A stretch of DNA of 64,000 nt from Escherichia phage RB16, in the sequence record NC_014467.1. One strand, given 5' to 3'. Made by a program: the position numbers and the translations under genes. The notes under the pieces were generated by a model, which saw only the letters and a program-made list of their open reading frames with translations, was not told the origin of the DNA and ran no database searches. Below, one piece after another: positions 499 to 27,557 of the stretch. Every line of letters begins with the position of its first letter. The first letter of the stretch is position 1.

Positions 499-996
499 TT
501 ATTCCATCACGATCCAGCCCATTAGCTGTTGATATCGCAATTCGAACGGGGTGATGAAAGAGCGGTTATTGATAACCTTCGTCCCGTTGTAGGACTTAAT
601 CACTTCCTCACCACGAAGCACATATTCGTATACTTCGTCCATAGTGTCGTAACGCACTTCTTCGACTTCGAAGCAGAAGTTGGAATACTCAATCATCCCA
701 ATCTTGTTCGCGTAACGGCGTTCGATACAACCCTGTTTTTCAACCAGAGTGATCGCAGTATCAATGAACTGCGCAAGTGCTTGCATGAAATTACCACATT
801 CGACTTCACGCCCCCCGCTTGAGATAGCCAGGTAAACGCGGCTCAATCCATCATTGCCGATGTAACCGATGCAATCACCACCAATGTTAACAGACCACAC
901 TTTGCCAATCGGCCCCATACCCATTCTGTTTTCACTGCGAGAAACACCTTTCAGTAACAGTGCCATGATGCCGCCGCGAACGTAATTCATTTTCAT
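499..996 (-). CDS. hypothetical protein (165 aa)
   Basis: ORF track; first gene of minus-strand array; no motif recognised. Confidence 0.5.
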   Translation of the reverse strand: MKMNYVRGGIMALLLKGVSRSENRMGMGPIGKVWSVNIGGDCIGYIGNDGLSRVYLAISSGGREVECGNFMQALAQFIDTAITLVEKQGCIERRYANKIGMIEYSNFCFEVEEVRYDTMDEVYEYVLRGEEVIKSYNGTKVINNRSFITPFELRYQQLMGWIVME

Positions 997-1006
997 GATA
1001 AGCCCC

Positions 1007-1237
1007 TTATTTTTTCAGGTTGATTAACCAAGACGGTTGGGTTTCTAAACTAACCTCTTTCCAAGCATATGCAACACTATAACCGGAATACGTCTGACAT
1101 ACAACAGCATTTTCATTTAAATATTTCACTTTGTGATCTGCCTCTTGTTCATTCAGGGCAGCACATACGATATTCTTTTCATACACTCCGCCGTTTGGCT
1201 GGATAATTGTTTCTTCAATCAGATAAACGCTGTTCAT
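1007..1237 (-). CDS. hypothetical protein (76 aa)
   Basis: ORF track; co-directional, stop/start abut neighbours. Confidence 0.4.
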   Translation of the reverse strand: MNSVYLIEETIIQPNGGVYEKNIVCAALNEQEADHKVKYLNENAVVCQTYSGYSVAYAWKEVSLETQPSWLINLKK

Positions 1238-1446
1238 GCTAATTCCTTCTCGATTGCTTCGATGATGTGGAGAACATAACCATTCAATCTTTCGGCTTGT
1301 TCAGCGGCTTCGATCATACCGTAACGAGGAACTTCTAAAACGTCGAAACCTTCGATCGGGTTGCTTTCGATATCAACGATGATATAGCTTTCACCGATTA
1401 CCGCACCTTTTCTCCAGTCTTTTACGAATTTCATTTTAGCGTTCAT
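1234..1446 (-). CDS. hypothetical protein (70 aa)
   Basis: ORF track; preceded by promoter cassette at 1485-1518 and SD. Confidence 0.45.
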   Translation of the reverse strand: MNAKMKFVKDWRKGAVIGESYIIVDIESNPIEGFDVLEVPRYGMIEAAEQAERLNGYVLHIIEAIEKELA

Positions 1447-1484
1447 TTTCTCGTTCCTTTTGTCTGTTCCGTTTCAACACCCCT

Positions 1485-1518
1485 AATATACAAAAACCCC
1501 TCGCGATATGCAAGGGGT
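1485..1518 (-). promoter_or_regulatory. terminator-hairpin/promoter cassette (-35 TTGCAT inside hairpin, 17-nt spacer, -10 TATATT)
   Basis: minus strand reads CCCCTTGCAT ATCGCGAGGGG TTTTTG TATATT; -10 rc of 1485-1490, -35 rc of 1508-1513. Confidence 0.5.
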
Positions 1519-1524
1519 TTTCGA

Positions 1525-2169
1525 TTAATTAAACTTATTGTACAGCATGAAGTTTACACCGATTGAACTTAGGGAGGTACAAGCTCGTTCCAGGTCGTCC
1601 GCTTCAATTTCGATAACGAATTTCGTTCGTATTAAAGCTGGCGCGACTTCTTCGACAGAAGGTGTAGTGACTTCTACGACAGGTTTATATACGTTCTTAT
1701 CATGATCAGGAACATCATCGAGATACTTCAACATTTGATTGATGTATCGTTTATCTGAGTATACAAACCGCTTCGCATTCGTCAGAAGAGAACGCATTTT
1801 AGAGCGGGTTGTAACTTTTGTACTTTCTTTGTATCCGCTACTTTCGGTGTTAAGAAAGTTTGGATTGCTATCCAGCATAATGATAGACGCTAGATTGTTT
1901 TTGTGGAAGTATCCCACGAGTTCATTACGAGACTGAGAGAAAACAAGCACATAAGCCTCTTCACCTACCAGATACATTTGTATATGTACTGGCGCTGTAA
2001 ACATTTTGTTTATGATTTTATGGAATCGAGTGTTTTCCGATAAACTGCGTTGTCTTGTATAACTTTTGAAAATGTTATCTTTGACAATGGTCGCCATCGT
2101 TTCGATGTGGTTTAGCGATTTCCCAAGTAACGGGTTCAGAAAAACTTCTTTTTTCGGTACATAAGCCAT
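1525..2169 (-). CDS. hypothetical protein (214 aa)
   Basis: ORF track; no motif recognised. Confidence 0.5.
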   Translation of the reverse strand: MAYVPKKEVFLNPLLGKSLNHIETMATIVKDNIFKSYTRQRSLSENTRFHKIINKMFTAPVHIQMYLVGEEAYVLVFSQSRNELVGYFHKNNLASIIMLDSNPNFLNTESSGYKESTKVTTRSKMRSLLTNAKRFVYSDKRYINQMLKYLDDVPDHDKNVYKPVVEVTTPSVEEVAPALIRTKFVIEIEADDLERACTSLSSIGVNFMLYNKFN

Positions 2170-2185
2170 ATTTCAAATTCTCTTT

Positions 2186-2476
2186 TTAGTGCATGAAAGA
2201 TTTAACGTACTTCAATATTTCTTCACGACATGTGTCAACGCTTGTGTTTTCGGCAATCATAGCATGACAAAGTATCTCACCGTCAAGCCAAAACGTCAGC
2301 ATGTATTGAATATCACGACCTTCTGTTGCTTCCTGATGATACTTGATTTTCGCGAAAGCAGTTTCGATACTTTCGGTTACTGTCAACATTTCGGAATCAC
2401 CATCTACAGCAGCCATTTCCCCAGCTTCTTCGCTGAATTCGCTTTCCAGTTCTTCCCAGTATACTATCGTTATCAT
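2186..2476 (-). CDS. hypothetical acidic protein (96 aa)
   Basis: ORF track. Confidence 0.45.
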   Translation of the reverse strand: MITIVYWEELESEFSEEAGEMAAVDGDSEMLTVTESIETAFAKIKYHQEATEGRDIQYMLTFWLDGEILCHAMIAENTSVDTCREEILKYVKSFMH

Positions 2477-2479
2477 TGA

Positions 2480-2620
2480 TTACCCCAAACATACTTTACA
2501 TTTGCATAAAGGGCATTCAGCCTCTTTGATGCGTAGACGTTTCGTTGTTGTCTTCTTCTCCGTATTGTGATCATATACATGAAGACAACGGAAGCAGATC
2601 ACCCAACGTTTATCCGTCAT
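2480..2620 (-). CDS. possible small Cys-rich protein (46 aa; CxxC...CPLCKCKVC)
   Basis: hand translation MTDKRWVICFRCLHVYDHNTEKKTTTKRLRIKEAECPLCKCKVCLG; below ORF-track size cutoff; overlaps next gene by 11 nt. Confidence 0.2.
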   Translation of the reverse strand: MTDKRWVICFRCLHVYDHNTEKKTTTKRLRIKEAECPLCKCKVCLG

Positions 2621-3077
2621 AACCGCCACCGCACTTAACCTCACCTTCAATGAACAGTTCGCGGTTGTCTCTCAAAAGATTGTATTTCTTTTCGAGTTCC
2701 GGCCCGAATGCGTCAGCGTCTTCATAATAGCTATAATTATAACAACCGCATTCATCATCCCATTCAGGTTCATCACCGCGTTCGTTGAAGTGTACGACTT
2801 TGAGATCGTCAACTCCAGACTCTTTCATTTTATCCCAGATATACCGGATGTCAACGCTATGGTAACTGAATGCTTCAAGGGTGATGTTATCACCATCGAT
2901 TTGAGGGATACCCCATTTAGGACGTTGGTCATCGGTGATGATATCAAGCAAAGATTCTACGTTTTCGTGTCCGTAAATCTTCGCGACCTCTTCCTCTTTA
3001 CCAGGACGAACAAGCCCGATCCCGATAATAAAGCTACTGCTTGAACTGTTACTTACAAAACCAGAACGGATCTTCAT
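2610..3077 (-). CDS. hypothetical protein, paralog family A (shared N-terminus MKIRSGFVSNSSSSSFI)
   Basis: first 17 aa identical to ORF 6488-7000, nucleotide differences synonymous; Cys motif ECGCYNYSYY. Confidence 0.55.
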   Translation of the reverse strand: MKIRSGFVSNSSSSSFIIGIGLVRPGKEEEVAKIYGHENVESLLDIITDDQRPKWGIPQIDGDNITLEAFSYHSVDIRYIWDKMKESGVDDLKVVHFNERGDEPEWDDECGCYNYSYYEDADAFGPELEKKYNLLRDNRELFIEGEVKCGGGYDG

Positions 3078-3265
3078 CGTCTTGCCTCATATTTCGCGTT
3101 CTCAGCGATTTTTTCTTGATAGATGTTATATGACATTACCAGAGGCGCAACCGCCACGATAAGCCCTATAAAGCACACAGAGAACTCACGTTTATTGAAA
3201 GCCAGGAACGCAATTGCGCTCCCGACCACGAACACACCCAGCGCTAATAAGAAGAATAACGTCAT
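3074..3265 (-). CDS. small membrane protein (63 aa, two hydrophobic segments)
   Basis: MTLFFLLALGVFVVGSAIAFLAF...GLIVAVAPLVM hydrophobic stretches. Confidence 0.45.
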   Translation of the reverse strand: MTLFFLLALGVFVVGSAIAFLAFNKREFSVCFIGLIVAVAPLVMSYNIYQEKIAENAKYEARR

Positions 3266-3879
3266 TTTGTGAGGGTGTCCATTTGTTTTGATTTTTCCAA
3301 CAGGGTTTTGATTACCGTATCCATCGCCTGTTCTGTATCACCATCATGATAGATGATCGCGGTTTGATGCAAACCTTTCACCAGACGATTGATAATGTAC
3401 GCCATTTCGGTCGGTAACAGTTTACCCGTTTTGTTGAATTTTTCAAACAGATTGAACAGTTCTTCGTTATTCCCTTTCTTACGGAAATTGAAGTTGTGCA
3501 TCCCAGACAGAAGACTATCCAGATACAGAACTGTTTTGTTATCAGAGCGGAGGTGTCCACCGATTTTGTAGTAGTTGCTGAAAACGTATGGTGCTTCACG
3601 AACATCATCGATGTCGAAACCAGCATCATCGATATTGCCTACGTGGGAGAAGAAATCCGCATCGTTATCGAACAGATTGATCGCGCCTTTCTTGTATGGG
3701 AATCCAGCCAGGTTAATGACTCCCTTTTCATACGCATCATCGTTATCAACGACAACGTATTCAGGAAGCATAGGGGCATATGGTTTGTTTTTGTCGTGGT
3801 TTTCGCGATACGCTAAAGGTTCAGCCAGATAGAGGATATCGCCTTGTTTGACTTCATCCCAAAAGATATTACGTGACAT
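3262..3879 (-). CDS. hypothetical protein (205 aa; start trimmed to MSRNIFWD to avoid overlap with upstream gene)
   Basis: ORF track 3262-4047 trimmed to the Met at 3879. Confidence 0.45.
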   Translation of the reverse strand: MSRNIFWDEVKQGDILYLAEPLAYRENHDKNKPYAPMLPEYVVVDNDDAYEKGVINLAGFPYKKGAINLFDNDADFFSHVGNIDDAGFDIDDVREAPYVFSNYYKIGGHLRSDNKTVLYLDSLLSGMHNFNFRKKGNNEELFNLFEKFNKTGKLLPTEMAYIINRLVKGLHQTAIIYHDGDTEQAMDTVIKTLLEKSKQMDTLTK

Positions 3880-3919
3880 ATTAAATTCCTCAACATGCCC
3901 CCTTTCGGGGGCTATATCA

Positions 3920-6139
3920 TTACAGTTTAACTTCTTTTTCTTCCAGGACGATTTCGCAATCGAATGTTGCACCTTCCCAGAACTTATGCGGGATAATGTC
4001 AGTCGCTTTAACCGATACTTTGGTTTCTTCAAAATCCATATCCGCAAACCAGGCGTGGCCTACAACGATACCGTACATTACACGGCTCAGGCGCTTGTTC
4101 AGTGCGCGTACTTCGTTGATGGTTGCCTTTGTTTCTTTATCAAGGTACTCGATTACCTTATCCTTGTCAAGCGCTGCGAGTTCAGCTTTAACAGCATCGT
4201 AAGCCCACAGGATGATCAGGTCGCCGTTGTTCAGTTTCTTCTTACCTTCGGCACGTTTCGCAACGGTTGCCGCTACAGCAGGAAGGGAGGAAACACCCTT
4301 GATTTTCAGATTCAGTTCTTTCGACATATAAACATCAGTCGAATCGGTACGGGTTACTTTCGGGGAGAATCCATAATCACGAATACCCTGTTCAGATAAC
4401 CATTCACCAGCGGCTTCACCGTATTTCTGTTTCAGACCTTCGGCATTACGTAAACCGATCGCGTCGTCACGGAAGAACTTCATCACCTTCTGGCGACCTT
4501 TCAGGATTTCCAGACGGATAGAGTCGTTTACATACTCTTTACCGGAGATCCCGCGAGTCATCGCACGGTTAACCAGAGGCAGACTTGTAAAGTCAACCAG
4601 AACCGACATACGGTCTTCACCGATTTTTGCCAGCGGCTTGATGGTCAAACCAGAAGCGCGGAGGTTTTTCAGTGTCGGAATATCAGTTTCCAGAGGCAGA
4701 ACTTTAACGTTTACGATACCGTCTTTAACGATGGTAAAGTTACGCACCTGCTTAGTTTCGATCTGTTCAGGCAGTCCCAGTTCTTTCTGTTTGCTTTCTG
4801 GGATAGTTACGTAACCTTGCAGATCCGTGTTAATGGAAATGTTAGGACGTGAACTGTTGCCGACCAGATGTTTAACCGATACTTTGGTTGTTGTCTGGGT
4901 AAATTTCGGTGTCCAGATTTCGTGCGTTACCATTTGTGCGGCTAATGCTTTGCGTTCTTCCGGTGTTTTCGCATTTGCGATCTGTTCTGACAGTTGATCC
5001 AGAGTATCATCTTCTTTCTGTACTGTCTGACGGCCTGTACGGTTGTACGCCCAGTGTTCAGAAGACAGGTCGATCACTGTGTCAGTTTCTGCCAGCAGTT
5101 CTAGAGCATCAACCAGAGTGAATGCGTTTTCGTCTGGAACCATGTTGTAATCAACACCTTCAATCAGACGTTTACCCGCATCAACTACCGCTTCCGCGAT
5201 CAGGTCTTTGGCGTTGGAATAATCCTGCTTAGTAAAGCAGTTATCGTAAGCCTTAATCAGACGAACGTCACCGACTTTTTTCAGCACTTTCCATGCCAGA
5301 TCAGGGTTCATGGTATGAAGTGCATGATACAGAACCACGTACAGAACCTGTTCACCTTCCATCGTAGCTGGATCAAATCCGTCGATATCGTTGATTGCGT
5401 TATCACCCAGCGCCCAGATGTTTTTGATATGCTCAGGAACCAGCACAACACCGTTTGCAGCGTTCAGGACATACACGCGCCCTTCGTCAATGTAGATCGC
5501 ATGGGTAGCATCACCTACTTTAACTTCAATACGCGCTGATGTTTGAGCGGTAATGATTTCAGCAAATGCTGGCTCGTATGCGTCGAAACCTTCAACGAAT
5601 TTATGCAATGCGTTGGTTGCTTCTGCCATTTTTTCCAGCAGAGGACGGTTAACATAGTAACCATATTCCAGGAACGCAATGCTGTTAAACGTCAGAGGGA
5701 GAACCGCACACGCTTTCAGGATGTCATCGGTACGCCAGCAGTTATCATAACCATCCGTCAGGAAGATCAGGCTGTTCAGGTTGCCGTTTTCGGATTGCAG
5801 GTCAGTTGCAATCTCAGCAGCCAGATTCAGAGGTTCGACGAAACCAGTACAACCAGTAGGTTTCAGATAACGGTCGATCGCGGTGCAGATATTGGTCAGA
5901 TCCGATACGTTGCTAACCTTCTCACCACGGAACACAGTACCGTAATCGCCTTTGCTGGAGAAGTACAGGATCGAAACAGTATCATCCTGTTTAACCAGGC
6001 TTGCCAGATTCGCTTTCAGGTGCTTACGAATTTTCGGCAATTCGCTGTACATTGAACCGGAAACGTCGCAAACGAAAACGTGGTTGGTCGGAGTCGGTTT
6101 AGATACTGCATTTTTGAATTCGATATTTGTAATTGACAT
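3920..6139 (-). CDS. von Willebrand factor A (vWA) domain protein, 739 aa
   Basis: N-terminal MIDAS motif VCDVSGSM (DxSxS) and downstream IFLTDGYDN; long C-terminal region of unknown fold. Confidence 0.7.
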   Translation of the reverse strand: MSITNIEFKNAVSKPTPTNHVFVCDVSGSMYSELPKIRKHLKANLASLVKQDDTVSILYFSSKGDYGTVFRGEKVSNVSDLTNICTAIDRYLKPTGCTGFVEPLNLAAEIATDLQSENGNLNSLIFLTDGYDNCWRTDDILKACAVLPLTFNSIAFLEYGYYVNRPLLEKMAEATNALHKFVEGFDAYEPAFAEIITAQTSARIEVKVGDATHAIYIDEGRVYVLNAANGVVLVPEHIKNIWALGDNAINDIDGFDPATMEGEQVLYVVLYHALHTMNPDLAWKVLKKVGDVRLIKAYDNCFTKQDYSNAKDLIAEAVVDAGKRLIEGVDYNMVPDENAFTLVDALELLAETDTVIDLSSEHWAYNRTGRQTVQKEDDTLDQLSEQIANAKTPEERKALAAQMVTHEIWTPKFTQTTTKVSVKHLVGNSSRPNISINTDLQGYVTIPESKQKELGLPEQIETKQVRNFTIVKDGIVNVKVLPLETDIPTLKNLRASGLTIKPLAKIGEDRMSVLVDFTSLPLVNRAMTRGISGKEYVNDSIRLEILKGRQKVMKFFRDDAIGLRNAEGLKQKYGEAAGEWLSEQGIRDYGFSPKVTRTDSTDVYMSKELNLKIKGVSSLPAVAATVAKRAEGKKKLNNGDLIILWAYDAVKAELAALDKDKVIEYLDKETKATINEVRALNKRLSRVMYGIVVGHAWFADMDFEETKVSVKATDIIPHKFWEGATFDCEIVLEEKEVKL

Positions 6140-6149
6140 TTAAATTTTC

Positions 6150-6488
6150 TCAGTATTTGGTTGTTTTATGTGCGTTTAAAATGCTTTGGATTTTTTCGGA
6201 AATCGTTTGCTGGTCTGGTTCACATCCCAACTTACCGCCAATCGCCTTATAAAAATCTTCAACAGAGTTTACGTTAAAATCCTGCATATTGAAACCTAAA
6301 GAGTACATGTGTGGATTTTTGAATTCGTAAACATCTACATCATACTCGTTAAGGTCGAAACGTTCAATATATTTCTTCAAAGAAAATAAATCGAACGGTA
6401 GCGGGAGGTGCTGTTCAATCGTTACAGGTTCCCCCAGCTTATGCGCTTTTAGCGTTGCCGCTTTCGTGTACATCATTTCTTCTTTCAT
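6150..6488 (-). CDS. hypothetical protein (112 aa)
   Basis: ORF track. Confidence 0.45.
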   Translation of the reverse strand: MKEEMMYTKAATLKAHKLGEPVTIEQHLPLPFDLFSLKKYIERFDLNEYDVDVYEFKNPHMYSLGFNMQDFNVNSVEDFYKAIGGKLGCEPDQQTISEKIQSILNAHKTTKY

Positions 6489-7000
6489 CAGTGGTGACTC
6501 TTTGATGTATGTTCAAGGTTGCGGAAAATGTTACCATGTTCCAGTTGGGTTCCAATCGGGCCGCACTCGTCAGAGTACGTAAACTCGTAGATAAACACGC
6601 CGTTTTGATTCCCGTACTTCGTGTTGTATTCTTCATACAGCCACATCTTGATCAGAGCGTCTTTCTCTTCGGTTTCTAAATCGTACCAATCCCGACCATC
6701 ATATGCAAGTGCAATTTGCGGATTTGAACGATAACGGGTTTCCGCGCTGTCTTCGGTTTCCCAATCATAGCGCTTATCATCGTAATACGATTCAAAACTA
6801 TTACCCATATGACCGCCTAAGTCACGGTGAACGTGTTGAACAACTTCTTCGGATGTCAGCGGGGGATTGTAGTAACCGCAATTAGGGGAACATTCACCCA
6901 TCATTTCACGAAGGTTGTTGATATCAGTCGGATCTTTCGGGAACCGGACGATGAAACTACTTGATGAACTATTGCTTACAAAACCAGAACGAATTTTCAT
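6488..7000 (-). CDS. hypothetical protein, paralog family A (shared N-terminus MKIRSGFVSNSSSSSFI)
   Basis: first 17 aa identical to ORF 2610-3077; Cys motif ECSPNCGYYN. Confidence 0.55.
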   Translation of the reverse strand: MKIRSGFVSNSSSSSFIVRFPKDPTDINNLREMMGECSPNCGYYNPPLTSEEVVQHVHRDLGGHMGNSFESYYDDKRYDWETEDSAETRYRSNPQIALAYDGRDWYDLETEEKDALIKMWLYEEYNTKYGNQNGVFIYEFTYSDECGPIGTQLEHGNIFRNLEHTSKSHH

Positions 7001-7242
7001 TTCAACGCCTCGAATTTGATTTCTTTCAGTGATTGTGTGTGATTATAACAAACCACTCCGCGATGTGTTTTCTTTCCGGTAAATCCGTCGAATATGGTGA
7101 CATAATAATGATAGCAACAATCATCAAGAGGATTGTTTCTGATATAGTCTAACACAACGTCTAACGATACGGTAGAGCATACACAGTCAGATTCATTGTC
7201 ACGACCATCATAGAAATCTTTTTCAATACTATAAATTTTCAC
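6997..7242 (-). CDS. hypothetical protein (81 aa)
   Basis: ORF track; ATGA-type overlap with neighbour. Confidence 0.4.
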   Translation of the reverse strand: MKIYSIEKDFYDGRDNESDCVCSTVSLDVVLDYIRNNPLDDCCYHYYVTIFDGFTGKKTHRGVVCYNHTQSLKEIKFEALK

Positions 7243-7481
7243 GATATTTTGCCTTTTCTTTCAGATTTGAGAACGATGTTACTGTAAGGATCCTTTGCTA
7301 CCAGTTCCCACAGGTCGCCAGGATGTTCCCCGCTACGGTAAACAGATGAACGAATGATTTCGTTAAACTTGATCAATGCTTCGTCGATGTCATCATAGCC
7401 ACGTTTCAGAGGCTTACGGTTGCGACGGATGAAGAACATTTCTTTGGTCTTCTCCCAGCGTTCAGAGTTTTTAACCTTCAT
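7239..7481 (-). CDS. hypothetical protein (80 aa)
   Basis: ORF track. Confidence 0.4.
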   Translation of the reverse strand: MKVKNSERWEKTKEMFFIRRNRKPLKRGYDDIDEALIKFNEIIRSSVYRSGEHPGDLWELVAKDPYSNIVLKSERKGKIS

Positions 7482-7770
7482 TGACCTGCCTCATGTTAGC
7501 CATGATTTCTTCAAAAGTCACGGGAATTTCTTTATACTGTTGTGATTCTTCATCCCATACATCGCGATACCCGTATGTTGAACTTTTTGCAATACGTTTT
7601 TCATTTTCCCAAACATCAATAGTAATGTTGTCACCAAGATAAGGAAAATTGTCAACTTTGTTTAAAGCGTCAATACAATTTTGTAACGATTCAGAAACAT
7701 GAACAATTTCAGTGAATTCATAATCGGCACTATAAGAAGAAACGTAAATCATAAAACCCGCACCCACCAA
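7471..7770 (-). CDS. hypothetical protein (99 aa)
   Basis: ORF track. Confidence 0.4.
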   Translation of the reverse strand: MVGAGFMIYVSSYSADYEFTEIVHVSESLQNCIDALNKVDNFPYLGDNITIDVWENEKRIAKSSTYGYRDVWDEESQQYKEIPVTFEEIMANMRQVNEG

Positions 7771-7940
7771 ATAAGGTCAGTAATTACGTCATAGATCATG
7801 AGTGGGAACACTGTAAGAATAATACCCATAACGAACACGGTTCCCCACAACCCCAAACTTTTACGAATAGATAACGCGTATCCAAAAACAACAATCATTC
7901 CTACTACTGCAATGATCAACATAATGATAGATGCAACCAT
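7749..7940 (-). CDS. small membrane protein (63 aa)
   Basis: two hydrophobic helices MVASIIMLIIAVVGMIVVFGYAL / LWGTVFVMGIILTVFPLMI. Confidence 0.4.
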   Translation of the reverse strand: MVASIIMLIIAVVGMIVVFGYALSIRKSLGLWGTVFVMGIILTVFPLMIYDVITDLIWWVRVL

Positions 7941-7955
7941 AATATAACCCTCACG

Positions 7956-7975
7956 AAAAGCCCCTTTCGGGGCTT
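7956..7975 (-). terminator. intrinsic terminator-like hairpin
   Basis: AGCCCC-GAAA-GGGGCT followed by TTTTCG on minus strand. Confidence 0.5.
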
Positions 7976-7981
7976 GATTAA

Positions 7982-8269
7982 TCAGTGTCCGAAGATGTGT
8001 TTAACAGACTCAGCGAAAGCGTAGAACACTGGATTGTTTTCTTTCAACATCGCTTCCGATTTCAGAAGGTAATCGCTTTTGAACTTAGTACCGAACAGGC
8101 AGTAAGAAAACGATTTGTCCCAGTAAAAGCAGTTATAACCACCATCAACAAATCTCACTTCAACCAACAAATAACCCACATCTTCCGGTTTGGTATTTGA
8201 ATAATCTTTCAGAAGGTTAGCACTTGCTACTTTGTATGCGTTACCAGCAACCAAATCGTTATAAGTCAT
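7982..8269 (-). CDS. hypothetical protein (95 aa)
   Basis: ORF track. Confidence 0.4.
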   Translation of the reverse strand: MTYNDLVAGNAYKVASANLLKDYSNTKPEDVGYLLVEVRFVDGGYNCFYWDKSFSYCLFGTKFKSDYLLKSEAMLKENNPVFYAFAESVKHIFGH

Positions 8270-8319
8270 GATGTGTTCCTTTTCAGTTTCGTTTCGATAA
8301 AGCTAAGGTATCACTGTTC

Positions 8320-8751
8320 TTACGAAGATGCAAACACTTTTTTGAAGAATTTTGTTTCCGGTCTTTCTTTGTATGGACGCATGGTCAATTCTTTACCATC
8401 CAACACAATTGGTTCTCCGTTCAGTTCGATCAGGATAAAGTTGCCTTTGCGATACTTCAACACACCCTGGCTTGCCGACCATTCATCATTATCCCAGTGG
8501 TTATAATGCCACTCAACAACGGTATCGATTGGTATTTCTGGTTGATTTCTCATAGCTTTCCTTCGTTCTGATGCTTCTTTCAATTGTCGTATTTGTGGGA
8601 TCAACTGTTGTGGTGGAACAGTATCTGCTTGTTTCAGTGCCTTTCGAGCTTGTTCAACAAACCATTCATATTTCGGACGGTGTTTAAGTTGTTCACGCAG
8701 TCGGGCATTCTCTTGTTCGGCAATACTTGCACGTTTTCTATAATCAGTCAT
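8320..8751 (-). CDS. hypothetical protein (about 144 aa; start trimmed to MTDYRKRAS)
   Basis: ORF track 8320-8814 trimmed to avoid overlap with 8759-9013. Confidence 0.4.
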   Translation of the reverse strand: MTDYRKRASIAEQENARLREQLKHRPKYEWFVEQARKALKQADTVPPQQLIPQIRQLKEASERRKAMRNQPEIPIDTVVEWHYNHWDNDEWSASQGVLKYRKGNFILIELNGEPIVLDGKELTMRPYKERPETKFFKKVFASS

Positions 8752-8758
8752 ATAAACC

Positions 8759-9013
8759 TCAAAAAATATGCGTAAGGTTTCCGGCGTTGTTCGGGTATTC
8801 CACGTAATCGCCACGGAATATGTTTAGATCGGAATCGAACTTAAATCCTTGACCCCTGACATCCTCATGACGGGAAATATAAGAACATCCGTACTTTTGT
8901 AGATCTTCCATGTACATTTCAGTGATGCGTTTTGCTTTGTCCATTCCCCGACCTTCAAATCGGGAACGGCGATAATGTTCCAGCAAAAACGCATATAACT
9001 TTTCGTATGTCAC
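8759..9013 (-). CDS. hypothetical protein (84 aa)
   Basis: ORF track. Confidence 0.4.
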   Translation of the reverse strand: MTYEKLYAFLLEHYRRSRFEGRGMDKAKRITEMYMEDLQKYGCSYISRHEDVRGQGFKFDSDLNIFRGDYVEYPNNAGNLTHIF

Positions 9014-9918
9014 AGAACTTTCCTTATCTGTTTGGCTATTGCCTCGATAACTGGCACGGAAACGGAGTTACCCGCTTGCTTGTATGCTTGTTTTTTACTC
9101 GATGGAATAATAAACGAATCTGGGAAGCCTTGCAAGCGAAAACATTCACGCGGGGTTAATCGTCGTGGGTTCTTCCCGTCCTGCAACACCAGACATTGAA
9201 CGCCGTCCTTGTAATATTGCGCGGTGATGGTTCCTGTGTGCGTAGAATCGGCTGTGACGGCCTGATAACCAAAGCCCTTACCGTTTGCCTTATTTCGTTC
9301 CTTACGCTCTCTAAAGCCTTTCCACGCGTTATCTGATAGAGTGTACGAATCATCAGCATCTTCGAGGATATCACCTACGCGCGTAGGGGTACGCGGGGGA
9401 ACCGGAAACGAAAAGAATACATCATCCAGGAAGCAGACAATGAACACGCGTTCACGTCGCTGGGGTAGTCCGAAATCTTTTGTATTCAGTCGCTGATAGA
9501 ATACGTTGTATCCTTCGGCCTCAAGAAGCCCGTAAATCGTTTTAAACGTCTTTCCCTTGTCATGGGTTAGCAATTCAGGCACGTTCTCAAAGAACAGCAC
9601 ACGGGGCTTTTTAGCGCGTATGATGCGGAGGATTTCAAAGAACACCGTACCGCGAGCATCATCAAATCCCAGTTTCAATCCGGCTTTACTGAATGCCTGA
9701 CACGGGAACCCAGCCAACAGGATATCGTGATCGGGTACTTTGTTTTCATCAATGGCAAACAGATCACCCTGTAGGTTATCGTCGCCCCAGTTTTCAATAT
9801 AGGTTTGCTGTGCGTGTTTGTCGATCTCAGACGTTAAAAGGCATTCGACCCCGCCGAATGCATTATCAAATCCAAATCGAACTCCACCAACGCCAGCGCA
9901 GAGGTCAATTATTTTCAT
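9010..9918 (-). CDS. DNA (cytosine-5)-methyltransferase, Dcm-like
   Basis: C5-MTase motifs in order: LCAGVGG (I), FPCQAFS (IV, catalytic Cys), ENV (VI), QRRERVF (VIII), GNSV (X). Confidence 0.85.
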   Translation of the reverse strand: MKIIDLCAGVGGVRFGFDNAFGGVECLLTSEIDKHAQQTYIENWGDDNLQGDLFAIDENKVPDHDILLAGFPCQAFSKAGLKLGFDDARGTVFFEILRIIRAKKPRVLFFENVPELLTHDKGKTFKTIYGLLEAEGYNVFYQRLNTKDFGLPQRRERVFIVCFLDDVFFSFPVPPRTPTRVGDILEDADDSYTLSDNAWKGFRERKERNKANGKGFGYQAVTADSTHTGTITAQYYKDGVQCLVLQDGKNPRRLTPRECFRLQGFPDSFIIPSSKKQAYKQAGNSVSVPVIEAIAKQIRKVL

Positions 9919-10178
9919 GCGTCGAAATCTATCTCGTCAATTTTGTAAGACTGTTCATCGATATCAGCCCACAGGGTGACTTTAACCGTTTTGCGGTCTT
10001 CGTACATGTCACGACCATCATAGCCGCCTACGTATTCGCTGTGCGTCTGTTCATCCACTTCCAAACGCAGACTATCGCGCATGATTTGGACAACAGCCTG
10101 TTCCATCGTAACAGAATCTGGGTGTTGTTCTGTGCCACCAACTCGAACATCTTTCAGGTGTAAAATAATATCAGACAT
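9915..10178 (-). CDS. hypothetical protein (87 aa)
   Basis: ORF track. Confidence 0.4.
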   Translation of the reverse strand: MSDIILHLKDVRVGGTEQHPDSVTMEQAVVQIMRDSLRLEVDEQTHSEYVGGYDGRDMYEDRKTVKVTLWADIDEQSYKIDEIDFDA

Positions 10179-26110: not shown

Positions 26111-26406
26111 ATCATCTTACCATATTTGAGAGTATTCATATAACCGATGATGTATTCAACAACAGCATCGCGTTCTTCTTCACATTCATATCCAGCCCAC
26201 GTTATCGACTGATTATGTGCTAAATGAAACTTAATCGCAGGTTTCCATGTTTTGTTAAGACAAGGAATTTTAGCATCAGTCTCAATCCATGAAACGTGCT
26301 CTACGTTAACAGGATAGTTAATACATTCCACCTCTGCATTACTATTGTATACAAAATGGTCTGCATATAAACGTTTATACGATTTAATTTCTGGTACAAT
26401 AATCAT
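26107..26406 (-). CDS. hypothetical protein (99 aa)
   Basis: ORF track. Confidence 0.4.
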   Translation of the reverse strand: MIIVPEIKSYKRLYADHFVYNSNAEVECINYPVNVEHVSWIETDAKIPCLNKTWKPAIKFHLAHNQSITWAGYECEEERDAVVEYIIGYMNTLKYGKMI

Positions 26407-27557
26407 TTTAACTCCACTGCATAAACATCGGTTTCAGTGGCTTTGTGTACGCGCATATCTTTACCGCATACTGCATAAGCCGGACAGTTACGACAACCGT
26501 TATGATCCTTATTACCGATCAGTTCATTACGGAACTGTTTGGTTTTCGGATGTTCCCAGATATCCTTAATGAAATCGTTCGCTTCCAGGACGTTCAAGCC
26601 TTCTTCCCAACCACCTTCAACCCAGCGTTCGGTAAACGAACAAGGGAAGAACTCGCCTTTCTCGTTGATGTACGAGCTAAACATGGTTGCTTCACAATCT
26701 TCGGCATACTGTTTGTACTGTTCGAAGTTTGGGTGTCCTTCCATCGCTTCAACGAAAGCGGGGGCTGAACAGCTATCGAAACCAAATCCTACACCAGAAT
26801 CAAGGCAATATTCAACAAGTTTTTTGTATTGTTCGCGGGTAACAGTATCCCAGTTCTTACCGCGTCCCTTTTGTTTCAGCCCCAGGAACACAATCGCATT
26901 GACTTGTTTCAGTCGCGGATCATTGCGCACAGCATCAACAACGTTAAACGCATCATCATAGGTTTTAGAGCTAACCATGAAGTGAAGGTTAATTTGCTGT
27001 TGTCCTGCTTCTGCCAGGTTCGCTACCGAGTCGAAAGCGACATCGAAGCCAGCATGTTTATAAACCGATACCGCAACAGCCCCAGCAACAGCCGCTAAAC
27101 GCGCTGCAACGTCTTTTGATACATCGGCAATGGTAAGGTTCGGCACAATGCCTTTAGAACGCGCATAGGCCATCATATCGAACATATCAGGGTTTGTTTG
27201 TCCCTGTGCATCAGCACCGAGGGCGCATTGAGTCAACCAGGGCATTTTATCAATGATAGATTTGAATGATTCCAGATCCATATTGTAGCCGTTAGGGTTG
27301 TTGGACTTGTAACAGAAACCGCACAGCTTACCAGCGGGGCCATTACATTTCGTGGTGATCTCGATATCGAGAATTTCAGGGAAAGGCGCGTATGTCGGAT
27401 CGCTTGCAAAGGTTGTACCCCAACGAGAGAATTCGCCAGTGTCAACATTGAAATTGTAGTTGTACCACTTAGAGCGAGCAAAGCGCATATTACCCTGCTG
27501 GTAAATCATCAGCGAAGGGGCTTTCATTACAGTTTGTGCGCGGTCAATAATATCCAT
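26403..27557 (-). CDS. putative Fe-S / radical-SAM-like enzyme with atypical Cys cluster (about 384 aa)
   Basis: LDIEITTKCNGPAGKLCGFCY (Cx7Cx2C preceded by TxxCN as in radical SAM cores) plus C-terminal CRNCPAYAVCG cluster; start set at MDIIDRAQ. Confidence 0.4.
   Translation of the reverse strand: MDIIDRAQTVMKAPSLMIYQQGNMRFARSKWYNYNFNVDTGEFSRWGTTFASDPTYAPFPEILDIEITTKCNGPAGKLCGFCYKSNNPNGYNMDLESFKSIIDKMPWLTQCALGADAQGQTNPDMFDMMAYARSKGIVPNLTIADVSKDVAARLAAVAGAVAVSVYKHAGFDVAFDSVANLAEAGQQQINLHFMVSSKTYDDAFNVVDAVRNDPRLKQVNAIVFLGLKQKGRGKNWDTVTREQYKKLVEYCLDSGVGFGFDSCSAPAFVEAMEGHPNFEQYKQYAEDCEATMFSSYINEKGEFFPCSFTERWVEGGWEEGLNVLEANDFIKDIWEHPKTKQFRNELIGNKDHNGCRNCPAYAVCGKDMRVHKATETDVYAVELK

Follow-up and report, generated by a model that had tools for sequence, protein, structure and literature searches.

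A short N-terminal tag on divergent phage proteins and a linked radical-SAM/SPASM enzyme predicted to modify it

Two open reading frames (ORFs) in a 64,000-nucleotide stretch of the Escherichia phage RB16 genome (sequence record NC_014467.1; the whole stretch analyzed is termed the window), here called ORF A and ORF B, encode proteins with the same first 17 amino acids (aa) on otherwise different bodies. The available evidence is that this N-terminal tag is a portable module, carried mainly by small phage proteins, whose genes are linked to that for a radical S-adenosylmethionine (radical-SAM) enzyme with a SPASM domain. It is proposed, with a probability of roughly two in three, that the tag is the site at which this enzyme recognizes and modifies the tagged proteins, which are its predicted substrates. 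The features concerned are as follows.

2610-3077, (-) strand: ORF A, tagged protein of 155 aa (RB43ORF116c)
3027-3077, (-) strand: N-terminal tag of ORF A, codons 1-17, MKIRSGFVSNSSSSSFI
6488-7000, (-) strand: ORF B, tagged protein of 170 aa (RB43ORF121c, phrog_7397)
6950-7000, (-) strand: N-terminal tag of ORF B, codons 1-17, MKIRSGFVSNSSSSSFI
26403-27557, (-) strand: radical-SAM/SPASM (twitch-like) enzyme of 384 aa, predicted maturase of tagged proteins
The tag as a peptide: MKIRSGFVSNSSSSSFIVRF

The shared N terminus and the bodies that carry it

The window is from an RB43-like T4-type phage, its DNA being 95-98% identical to that of RB43, IME-CF2 and Miller, and the minus strand carries every gene from about 499 to 10178. 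ORFs A and B do, as the original prediction stated, share a 17-aa start (17 of 18 residues are identical by BLASTP). Within the 51 nt encoding the tag there are 10 differences, in 8 codons and including an AGC/TCA serine switch, all 10 of which are synonymous; nucleotide identity is 80% inside the tag and 31%, i.e. the random level, across the next 102 nt. Since the tag differences are only synonymous and identity falls to the random level downstream, the identity of the two tags is maintained by selection at the peptide level, as had been proposed, and not by recent gene conversion or recombination. The same figures, together with serine codons that change class, show that the leader is not a recombination scar, contrary to the earlier suggestion of a recombination-generated cassette. 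The sole upstream similarity between the two genes is a GAGG Shine-Dalgarno element 7-8 nt 5' of either start codon, and scans of positions 2000-8500 for promoters, terminators and late promoters gave nothing beyond chance.

Profile-profile comparison aligns the A and B families across columns 1-36 only, and homologs of either protein found by whole-protein searches keep the same first 16-18 residues down to about 30% identity. Beyond the tag, each family has its own conserved features, i.e. a C-terminal YSDExG...EHGNIFRN..H...SHH in the ORF B body family and the motif GDEPE.DE..YNYD...G.G(R/Y)(N/D)G-COOH in that of ORF A. A Cys motif at one time considered common to both proteins proved to be a chance resemblance: CGYYN (residues 41-45 of B) and CGCYN (residues 110-114 of A) lie at different relative positions, the BLASTP match has E=1.2, the motif is conserved in neither family and is not kept across B homologs, and the profile alignment ends at column 36. 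In the 2005 RB43 record (7128-7610 there), ORF B has 160 aa and ends ...EHGNIFP; in the window and in re-sequenced RB43 (HE858210) it has 170 aa and ends ...EHGNIFRNLEHTSKSHH, with the conserved C-terminal motif of the family, so the older entry probably contains a frameshift or a sequencing error.

The consensus of the tag, among 227 ORFs drawn from loci picked by the enzyme alone (see below), is M-K-[I/V/T]-R-x-G-F-V-S-N-S-S-S-[S/T]-S-[F/Y]-h-h. In this set R4, G6, N10, S11 and S12 are conserved in 100% of cases, F7 and S9 in 99% and V8 in 96%, position 5 being free; a larger, leader-selected set gives an agreeing consensus. Both AGY and TCN codons occur at every serine position of the tag (469 genes).

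The spread of the tag is wide. From 1.84 billion proteins, a HMMER profile made from the A and B families retrieves, at E<=1e-3, 13,348 representative clusters (50% identity). A B-like full-length class, comprising 359 of these clusters, reaches E<=1e-30, and most of the remainder probably match chiefly via the leader. In essentially all family members the tag is at the extreme N terminus. A degenerate DNA pattern for the leader was found in at least 119 IMG/VR stretches, whose contigs measure 7-548 kb and which hold as many as 6 copies each, and in 93 GTDB stretches, from genomes of many phyla; a scan for further tagged genes covered the window only. Tag genes stand in tandem and in one orientation, the largest arrays having 13 genes, with two to four in a row on other T4-like contigs. 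No Pfam, NCBIfam or PADLOC family was found for A, B or the 150 tagged proteins scanned. In PHROGs, no functional model covers tagged proteins, the only match, apart from a partial one to phrog_132 (see below), being to the RB43-derived phrog_7397, through the leader. No published description of the tag motif, or of a phage radical-SAM/SPASM system, was found in a literature coverage that is incomplete. On sequence grounds, both A and B fall within a family of small phage proteins that is very large, lacks annotation and is defined only by its N-terminal tag.

By contrast with the tag, the bodies are diverse. When stripped of the tag, 394 unique bodies fall into 129 BLAST clusters (92 singletons), the median protein length being 133 aa; when the 20 largest clusters are compared with one another by hhalign, no more than 3 of 190 pairs exceed 90% probability. 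Tagged proteins range from 70 to >300 aa, with zinc ribbons among their bodies. Because the bodies lack detectable mutual similarity, the tag is best regarded as a portable module on largely unrelated proteins.

AlphaFold predictions for A and B have a predicted local distance difference test score (pLDDT) of <50 for residues 1-11 and confident folds beyond, with residues 13-20 forming the first core β-strand. The low confidence for residues 1-11 is consistent with a flexible and accessible linear motif. The ORF A model (pLDDT 87.9, predicted template modeling score 0.80; strand 1 comprises residues 13-23) gave no significant fold match in the PDB or BFVD. Automated annotation, deriving from phrog_132, calls ORF A orthologs 'head-tail adaptor'; this assignment was rejected, the phrog_132 match being partial and the fold searches giving no support.

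Two weaker regularities are seen beyond the tag. An acidic motif, hhhh[SG]D[ED]xG, recurs in several body families, and the last residue is strongly skewed in composition (G 17%, H 11%, D 10%, Y 8%, W 5%, C 5%), C-terminal tails such as RNG, RDG, YDG, SHH, GGY and GGW being found repeatedly; neighboring non-tag proteins mostly end in K, L or E. It could be that the C terminus takes part in modification.

It had been suggested that the leader is a targeting or processing signal. As such it would either direct proteins to the capsid in the T4 manner (as in IPI-III) or serve in secretion, and be removed after delivery. The host of A and B is a T4-like phage, the internal proteins of T4 are the classic example of a short leader on divergent bodies, and the extreme N-terminal position of the tag would be as required. 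Such a role is nevertheless quite improbable. Residues 1-20 contain no (L/I)xE prohead-protease site and have no likeness to MKTYQEFIAE; nor is there a hydrophobic h-region, twin-arginine motif or lipobox, residues 9-15 reading S-N-S-S-S-S-S. Sec, Tat and lipoprotein signal peptides were rejected because the tag has no h-region of 7-15 residues. The hydrophobic stretch that follows the serines is, in the models, a core β-strand, which would be removed by cleavage past the tag. Moreover, the same tag is present on contigs of very different phages, across the size range given above, and in bacterial operons, so that no single capsid or secretion machine fits; A and B lie among small genes that are all read leftward, and no late-promoter motif is close by; and the linkage to the enzyme would be left unexplained. 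What survives of the suggestion is that the leader is a portable module on unrelated bodies, its genes being linked to a type of enzyme that modifies proteins or peptides; no known kind of cleavable targeting peptide fits it.

The enzyme and its linkage to tagged genes

Clustering of all ORFs from tag-seeded loci into neighbor families gave, as the top non-tag family, a radical-SAM protein of ~350 aa found in 92 loci; the next non-tag family occurs in 13. All members of the former that were compared (85 of 85) match the window at 26451-27533 on the (-) strand by tblastn. The enzyme lies inside the short stored flanks of 87 of the 214 tag-seeded loci (69 of 148 among loci of at least 6 kb), and in 88 of 88 nearest pairs the tag gene and the enzyme gene share a strand, most of these pairs being directly adjacent.

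The linkage also holds in reverse. Of 80 IMG/VR loci (±10 kb) that were retrieved by enzyme similarity alone, 67 hold 1-13 strict tag genes, and all 240 of these genes are co-oriented with the enzyme. In the enzyme-seeded set, a third gene family reaches at most 11 of 73 loci. Seven of the 13 negative loci are from RB43/KP15-type genomes, in which the tag genes are about 20 kb away, and one negative locus (L294) has the variant leader MKVRQSFVANSSSSSF. Among 50,697 records of isolate phages, ORF A is found in 172, ORF B in 173 and the enzyme in 172, which constitute the same RB43/Slopekvirus-type set. A further named isolate that carries the enzyme, Vibrio phage D479, was predicted to have tag genes and does: five of them lie upstream of the enzyme gene, at 1.4-10.5 kb and on its strand. 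In another T4-like phage, B-like and A-like genes, separated by one gene for a 113-aa protein, are followed by the enzyme gene.

The enzyme class is clear. The window enzyme scores 26 bits against Pfam SPASM (gathering cut-off 21.5), and its relatives match both Pfam Radical_SAM and SPASM; the ortholog in Miller is annotated 'radical SAM protein'. The cluster motif is C71-x7-C79-x2-C82, with C71, C79 and C82 invariant in the family, and the C-terminal C263, C288, C306 and C358 are conserved. NCBIfam SPASM/twitch models match the window enzyme below cut-off, with sub-threshold likeness to MftC, WgkB, PqqE and other SPASM maturases, and no NCBIfam maturase model reaches its cut-off. When the family profile is compared with the PDB, the best match, over the core and the SPASM domain, is SuiB (5V1Q; E=3.7e-11), followed by SkfB (5e-9), BtrN and PqqE; the nearest relatives of known structure are therefore two peptide maturases, SuiB and SkfB, and the dehydrogenase BtrN.

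Some further observations on the enzyme genes may be recorded here. The T4-like subgroup has the non-canonical spacing CX7CX2C (CNGPAGKLCGFC, residues 71-82 of the window enzyme), and the canonical CX3CX2C is found in about half of the family. A homing-endonuclease gene directly adjoins the radical-SAM gene in two unrelated T4-like phages (L002:10500-11264; L218:21100-21828); that in L002, which is GIY-YIG-like by motif, separates the enzyme gene from an A-like tagged gene. The gene is annotated 'homing endonuclease' in Vibrio phage D479. In KLB27, a sister phage of KLB3 (see below), only 10% of the radical-SAM gene is matched.

A single gene for a SPASM-type radical-SAM enzyme, with 1-13 adjacent and co-oriented small genes that have in common only a short, exposed, near-invariant peptide and with no other conserved neighbor, is the signature of an enzyme of the radical-SAM maturase kind and its substrates, and we infer that the tagged proteins have the latter role. 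That serine but not threonine is found at positions 9, 11 and 12, with G6, F7 and N10 invariant, suggests that the tag is itself modified rather than just bound. The first ~11 residues, being flexible and exposed, would be bound by the enzyme as a short linear motif and modified by use of a 5'-deoxyadenosyl radical, in a manner like that of an anaerobic sulfatase-maturating enzyme (anSME) acting on its motif, or of a maturase for peptides that are made on the ribosome and modified post-translationally (RiPPs) acting on many precursors with one recognition sequence. The residue modified and the chemistry are likewise putative. Candidate reactions include oxidation of serine to formylglycine (anSME/BtrN-like); formation of a C-C or C-O cross-link between F7 or F16 and serine or asparagine, e.g. 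an F-x-S cyclophane or a Ser-O ether (SuiB/Fxs/Tqq-like); and epimerization. A single enzyme would, by such means, mature a whole repertoire of diversified, effector-like proteins. The matured proteins probably function in host takeover or phage-host conflict; an effector role is plausible because the genes are small, diversified and arrayed and, in the case of A and B, lie in a leftward small-gene block with no late-promoter motif nearby.

Several observations weigh against assignment of the tag as a modification site. Leader-pattern scans presuppose the motif, an ascertainment bias that the enzyme-seeded set mitigates but does not remove, and 6 of the 80 enzyme-seeded loci have no strict tag gene within 10 kb. 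In the window, the enzyme gene is not adjacent to A and B but lies on the same strand at 19-23 kb from them (19.4 kb in the case of ORF B), so that for this phage the evidence of a link comes from phyletic co-occurrence and from other genomes. The N-terminal extension of the enzyme, which precedes the cluster motif and has ~50 aa, appears too small to hold a classical RiPP recognition element (RRE), given its length and an alignment to SuiB that begins at SuiB residue 134. The tag has no cysteine and matches no known radical-SAM target motif; the tagged proteins are folded and of 70-300 aa, unlike RiPP precursors; and no protease or exporter accompanies the tagged genes in the loci examined. 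In view of the skewed C termini, it may also be that the modified site lies elsewhere, with the tag being for recognition only.

Some of these points would be accommodated if the tag were an intrinsic structural or functional element, e.g. for oligomerization, for strand exchange, or as a serine loop binding a ligand or phosphate, with the enzyme linked in another way, i.e. the tagged proteins being its accessory or regulatory partners or binding its product. The first core β-strand at residues 13-20 in both predicted folds would suit such an element, as would the lack of an RRE-sized domain in the enzyme; the second, acidic motif and the fixed short tails (including RNG, YDG, SHH and GGY) hint at a site formed by the two termini. 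However, with bodies that are not detectably homologous, that vary from 70 to >300 aa and that include zinc ribbons, a shared active site is unlikely; 1-13 partners per enzyme gene fit substrates better than subunits; and residues 1-11 make no confident contacts in the AlphaFold models. An intrinsic role is thus considered unlikely, and modification of the tag by the enzyme is preferred.

The pairing of tag and enzyme extends to bacteria. At 13 loci in bacterial genomes, a single tagged protein (MKIRNGFVTNSSSTSF...) is encoded with its own radical-SAM/SPASM enzyme in one operon; the sources include Veillonella parvula, Acetatifactor muris, Lachnobacterium bovis, other Lachnospiraceae, Clostridia, Verrucomicrobia and Sulfuricurvum.

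Bacterial operon loci: L158:503-7520; also L125, L141, L166, L181, L188; L132, L153, L172, L173, L180, L143, L214

Where the stored sequence extends far enough to give the full composition, the operon order is a metallo-β-lactamase (MBL)-fold protein, a trypsin-NACHT protein of ~950 aa, a 140-aa protein, the tagged protein, the radical-SAM/SPASM enzyme and a 310-aa M1E1E6-like integron-cassette protein. The ~950-aa protein combines a trypsin-like peptidase with a NACHT/STAND NTPase, both by Pfam matches that are below the gathering cut-off, and PADLOC has no model for the operon. It looks like a conflict system of the nucleotide-binding leucine-rich-repeat (NLR) type that uses the same pair of tag and enzyme, a context that supports a role for the pair in phage-host conflict. 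A broader proposal, which seems about evenly poised, is that of a virosphere-wide system for post-translational modification, in which one phage radical-SAM/SPASM enzyme modifies a universal 16-residue tag on hundreds of unrelated small effectors and which is shared by the bacterial trypsin-NACHT operons, the tag then being a currency of phage-host conflict for both sides.

If the tag is indeed a site for radical-SAM modification, it would define a large class of post-translationally modified phage proteins that is named in no current database, with some members mislabeled 'head-tail adaptor', and would provide a substrate family for the orphan 'radical SAM protein' of RB43-, KP15- and Miller-type phages, certain of which, infecting Klebsiella and Enterobacter, are under study as candidates for therapy. 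New radical chemistry on a serine-rich motif may be revealed, and a portable tag of 16 residues might be of use for enzymatic protein modification. The NLR-like operons of bacteria would make the conflict role testable with the isolates RB43, Miller, KP15 and Vibrio phage D479.

The vWA block between ORFs A and B

Between the two tagged genes are four others, including one for a large protein with a von Willebrand factor type A (vWA) domain, in the common orientation and of the types originally described.

3074-6488, (-) strand: intervening block of four genes, read as a lineage-specific insert between two array members
3074-3265, (-) strand: 63-aa hydrophobic (membrane) protein
3262-3879, (-) strand: 205-aa protein
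3920-6139, (-) strand: 739-aa vWA protein (Pfam VWA)
6150-6488, (-) strand: 112-aa protein

The 739-aa protein matches Pfam VWA, VWA_2 and VWA_3 at residues 21-176 and has a DVSGS sequence resembling the metal-ion-dependent adhesion site motif; its remaining ~560 residues gave no domain match, and no sequence relative was found in the PDB. Labels applied elsewhere to vWA proteins of this type, i.e. 'minor tail protein', 'proximal thread matrix protein 1' and 'marine proteobacterial sortase target protein', have no domain or fold support.

The original prediction had the paralogs bracketing a 3.4-kb cassette. Were the paralogs and the block one functional or recombination unit, the repeated 5' ends might be its borders, or the vWA protein might be a partner of the tagged proteins. 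The order B-112aa-vWA-205aa-TM-A (TM being the membrane protein) is kept across the RB43/Slopekvirus clade, consistent with such a unit; a vWA homolog, 27% identical, is found ~3 kb from two tag genes on one jumbo-phage contig, and unrelated short vWA genes occur in five other tag loci. In addition, vWA proteins have been linked to radical-SAM-modified peptides in some bacterial conflict systems (PMC7159879), although those systems were rejected as a match for the tag system, having a different architecture.

By contrast, the phyletic patterns largely refute the cassette, which is thus highly improbable. The vWA family is present in 488 isolate phage records, versus ~172 for A, B and the enzyme, and most of its carriers, e.g. 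the ViI-like phages, lack the tag system; the >300 records outside the latter set, which have neither the paralogs nor the enzyme, include ViI-like phages of Salmonella, Escherichia, Dickeya and Klebsiella as well as phages of Rhizobium and others. Conversely, >200 tag loci lack the block, the exceptions being three RB43-like contigs and the jumbo-phage contig, and in the other T4-like phage described above the B-like and A-like genes have only the 113-aa gene between them. In Klebsiella phage vB_KM5a1-KLB3 (Slopekvirus; PP444687.1 105012-106932), the vWA protein is cut to 151 aa and the 205-aa gene is gone, with A and B intact; this natural deletion variant, like KLB27, offers genetic material that already exists. 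The repeated 51 nt are, as noted, just 80% identical, and their flanks are without similarity. Thus, the expectation that paralogs and intervening genes occur together in related phages holds within the RB43/Slopekvirus clade and fails outside it, and the block is read as a lineage-specific insertion into a two-member array of tag genes that is not part of the tag system.

The large vWA family (about 730 aa, of which the first 180 are assignable) is a worthwhile target in its own right. It retains 44-49% identity across many isolate phages, its carriers being, among others, ViI-like (Ackermannviridae-type) phages of Salmonella/Escherichia and phages of Dickeya, Erwinia and Vibrio. A 178,077-bp record assigned to 'Flagellimonas marina' (NZ_JBHSCL010000010.1) encodes the vWA, 205-aa and 63-aa proteins as well as A and B, with ~90% aa identity to the window for the vWA protein and 34-91% for the others; it is almost certainly a phage genome, as a contaminant or co-assembled, in a bacterial assembly.

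Comparison with known systems

The T4 internal proteins IPI, IPII and IPIII, which are thought to be anti-host effectors, have a short N-terminal leader for capsid targeting on unrelated bodies and are encoded at variable loci. The tag, likewise in a T4-type phage, is a short leader on unrelated small proteins. However, it differs in sequence, lacks (L/I)xE, continues into a core strand and is spread far beyond T4-like phages; further, tag genes are linked to a radical-SAM enzyme and not to the prohead protease.

The glycyl-radical enzymes and their activases provide a precedent for a radical-SAM enzyme acting on an exposed motif of a folded protein, and the invariant R, G and F of the tag, in R-x-G-F, recall the R-V-x-G-[FY] motif (fingerprint R-[IVT]-[CSA]-G-[YF]). 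The spacing from R to G is, however, one residue shorter in the tag, which is N-terminal and not in a C-terminal domain, and known activases have no SPASM domain, unlike the tag enzyme.

Anaerobic sulfatase-maturating enzymes (anSME/AtsB) are radical-SAM/SPASM enzymes that lack an RRE and act on a short motif of a full-length sulfatase, in which serine is oxidized to formylglycine. Like these, and like BtrN, which is among the PDB matches, the tag enzyme is of the radical-SAM/SPASM-twitch type with no RRE-sized domain. By contrast, the (C/S)-x-(P/A)-x-R motif of the sulfatases is absent from the tag, MKIRxGFVSNSSSSSF, which is carried by many unrelated small proteins rather than by one enzyme family; sequence searches found no similarity above threshold between the tag enzyme and anSME.

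The enzyme class is that of the RiPP systems with a radical-SAM core and a SPASM/twitch domain, e.g. streptide (SuiB/SuiA), the sactipeptides (SkfB/AlbA) and the triceptides, including the FxSxx/FxsB type. In these, as here, one enzyme gene has beside it a single small gene or several, all co-oriented, with a short segment in common and variation elsewhere. A conserved recognition segment with a variable remainder is represented by the tag and its 129 body clusters; the radical-SAM Cys triad and the C-terminal, Cys-rich SPASM/twitch domain are present in the enzyme; and the predicted substrate genes are co-oriented (88 of 88 and 240 of 240) and mostly adjacent, the distance in the window being 19-23 kb. 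The tag also contains an F-x-S triplet, F7-V8-S9, which may resemble the FxSxx/FxsB motif. Unlike in RiPP systems, the shared segment is only ~16 residues at the extreme N terminus, what varies is a folded protein of 70-300 aa rather than a short core peptide, protease, transporter and RRE-sized domain are all lacking, and the system is carried mainly by phages. The general logic of a radical-SAM/SPASM maturase with tagged substrates is already known; in the databases and papers searched, what appears to be undescribed is this tag, the scale on which it occurs, its location on folded proteins and the fact that phages carry it.

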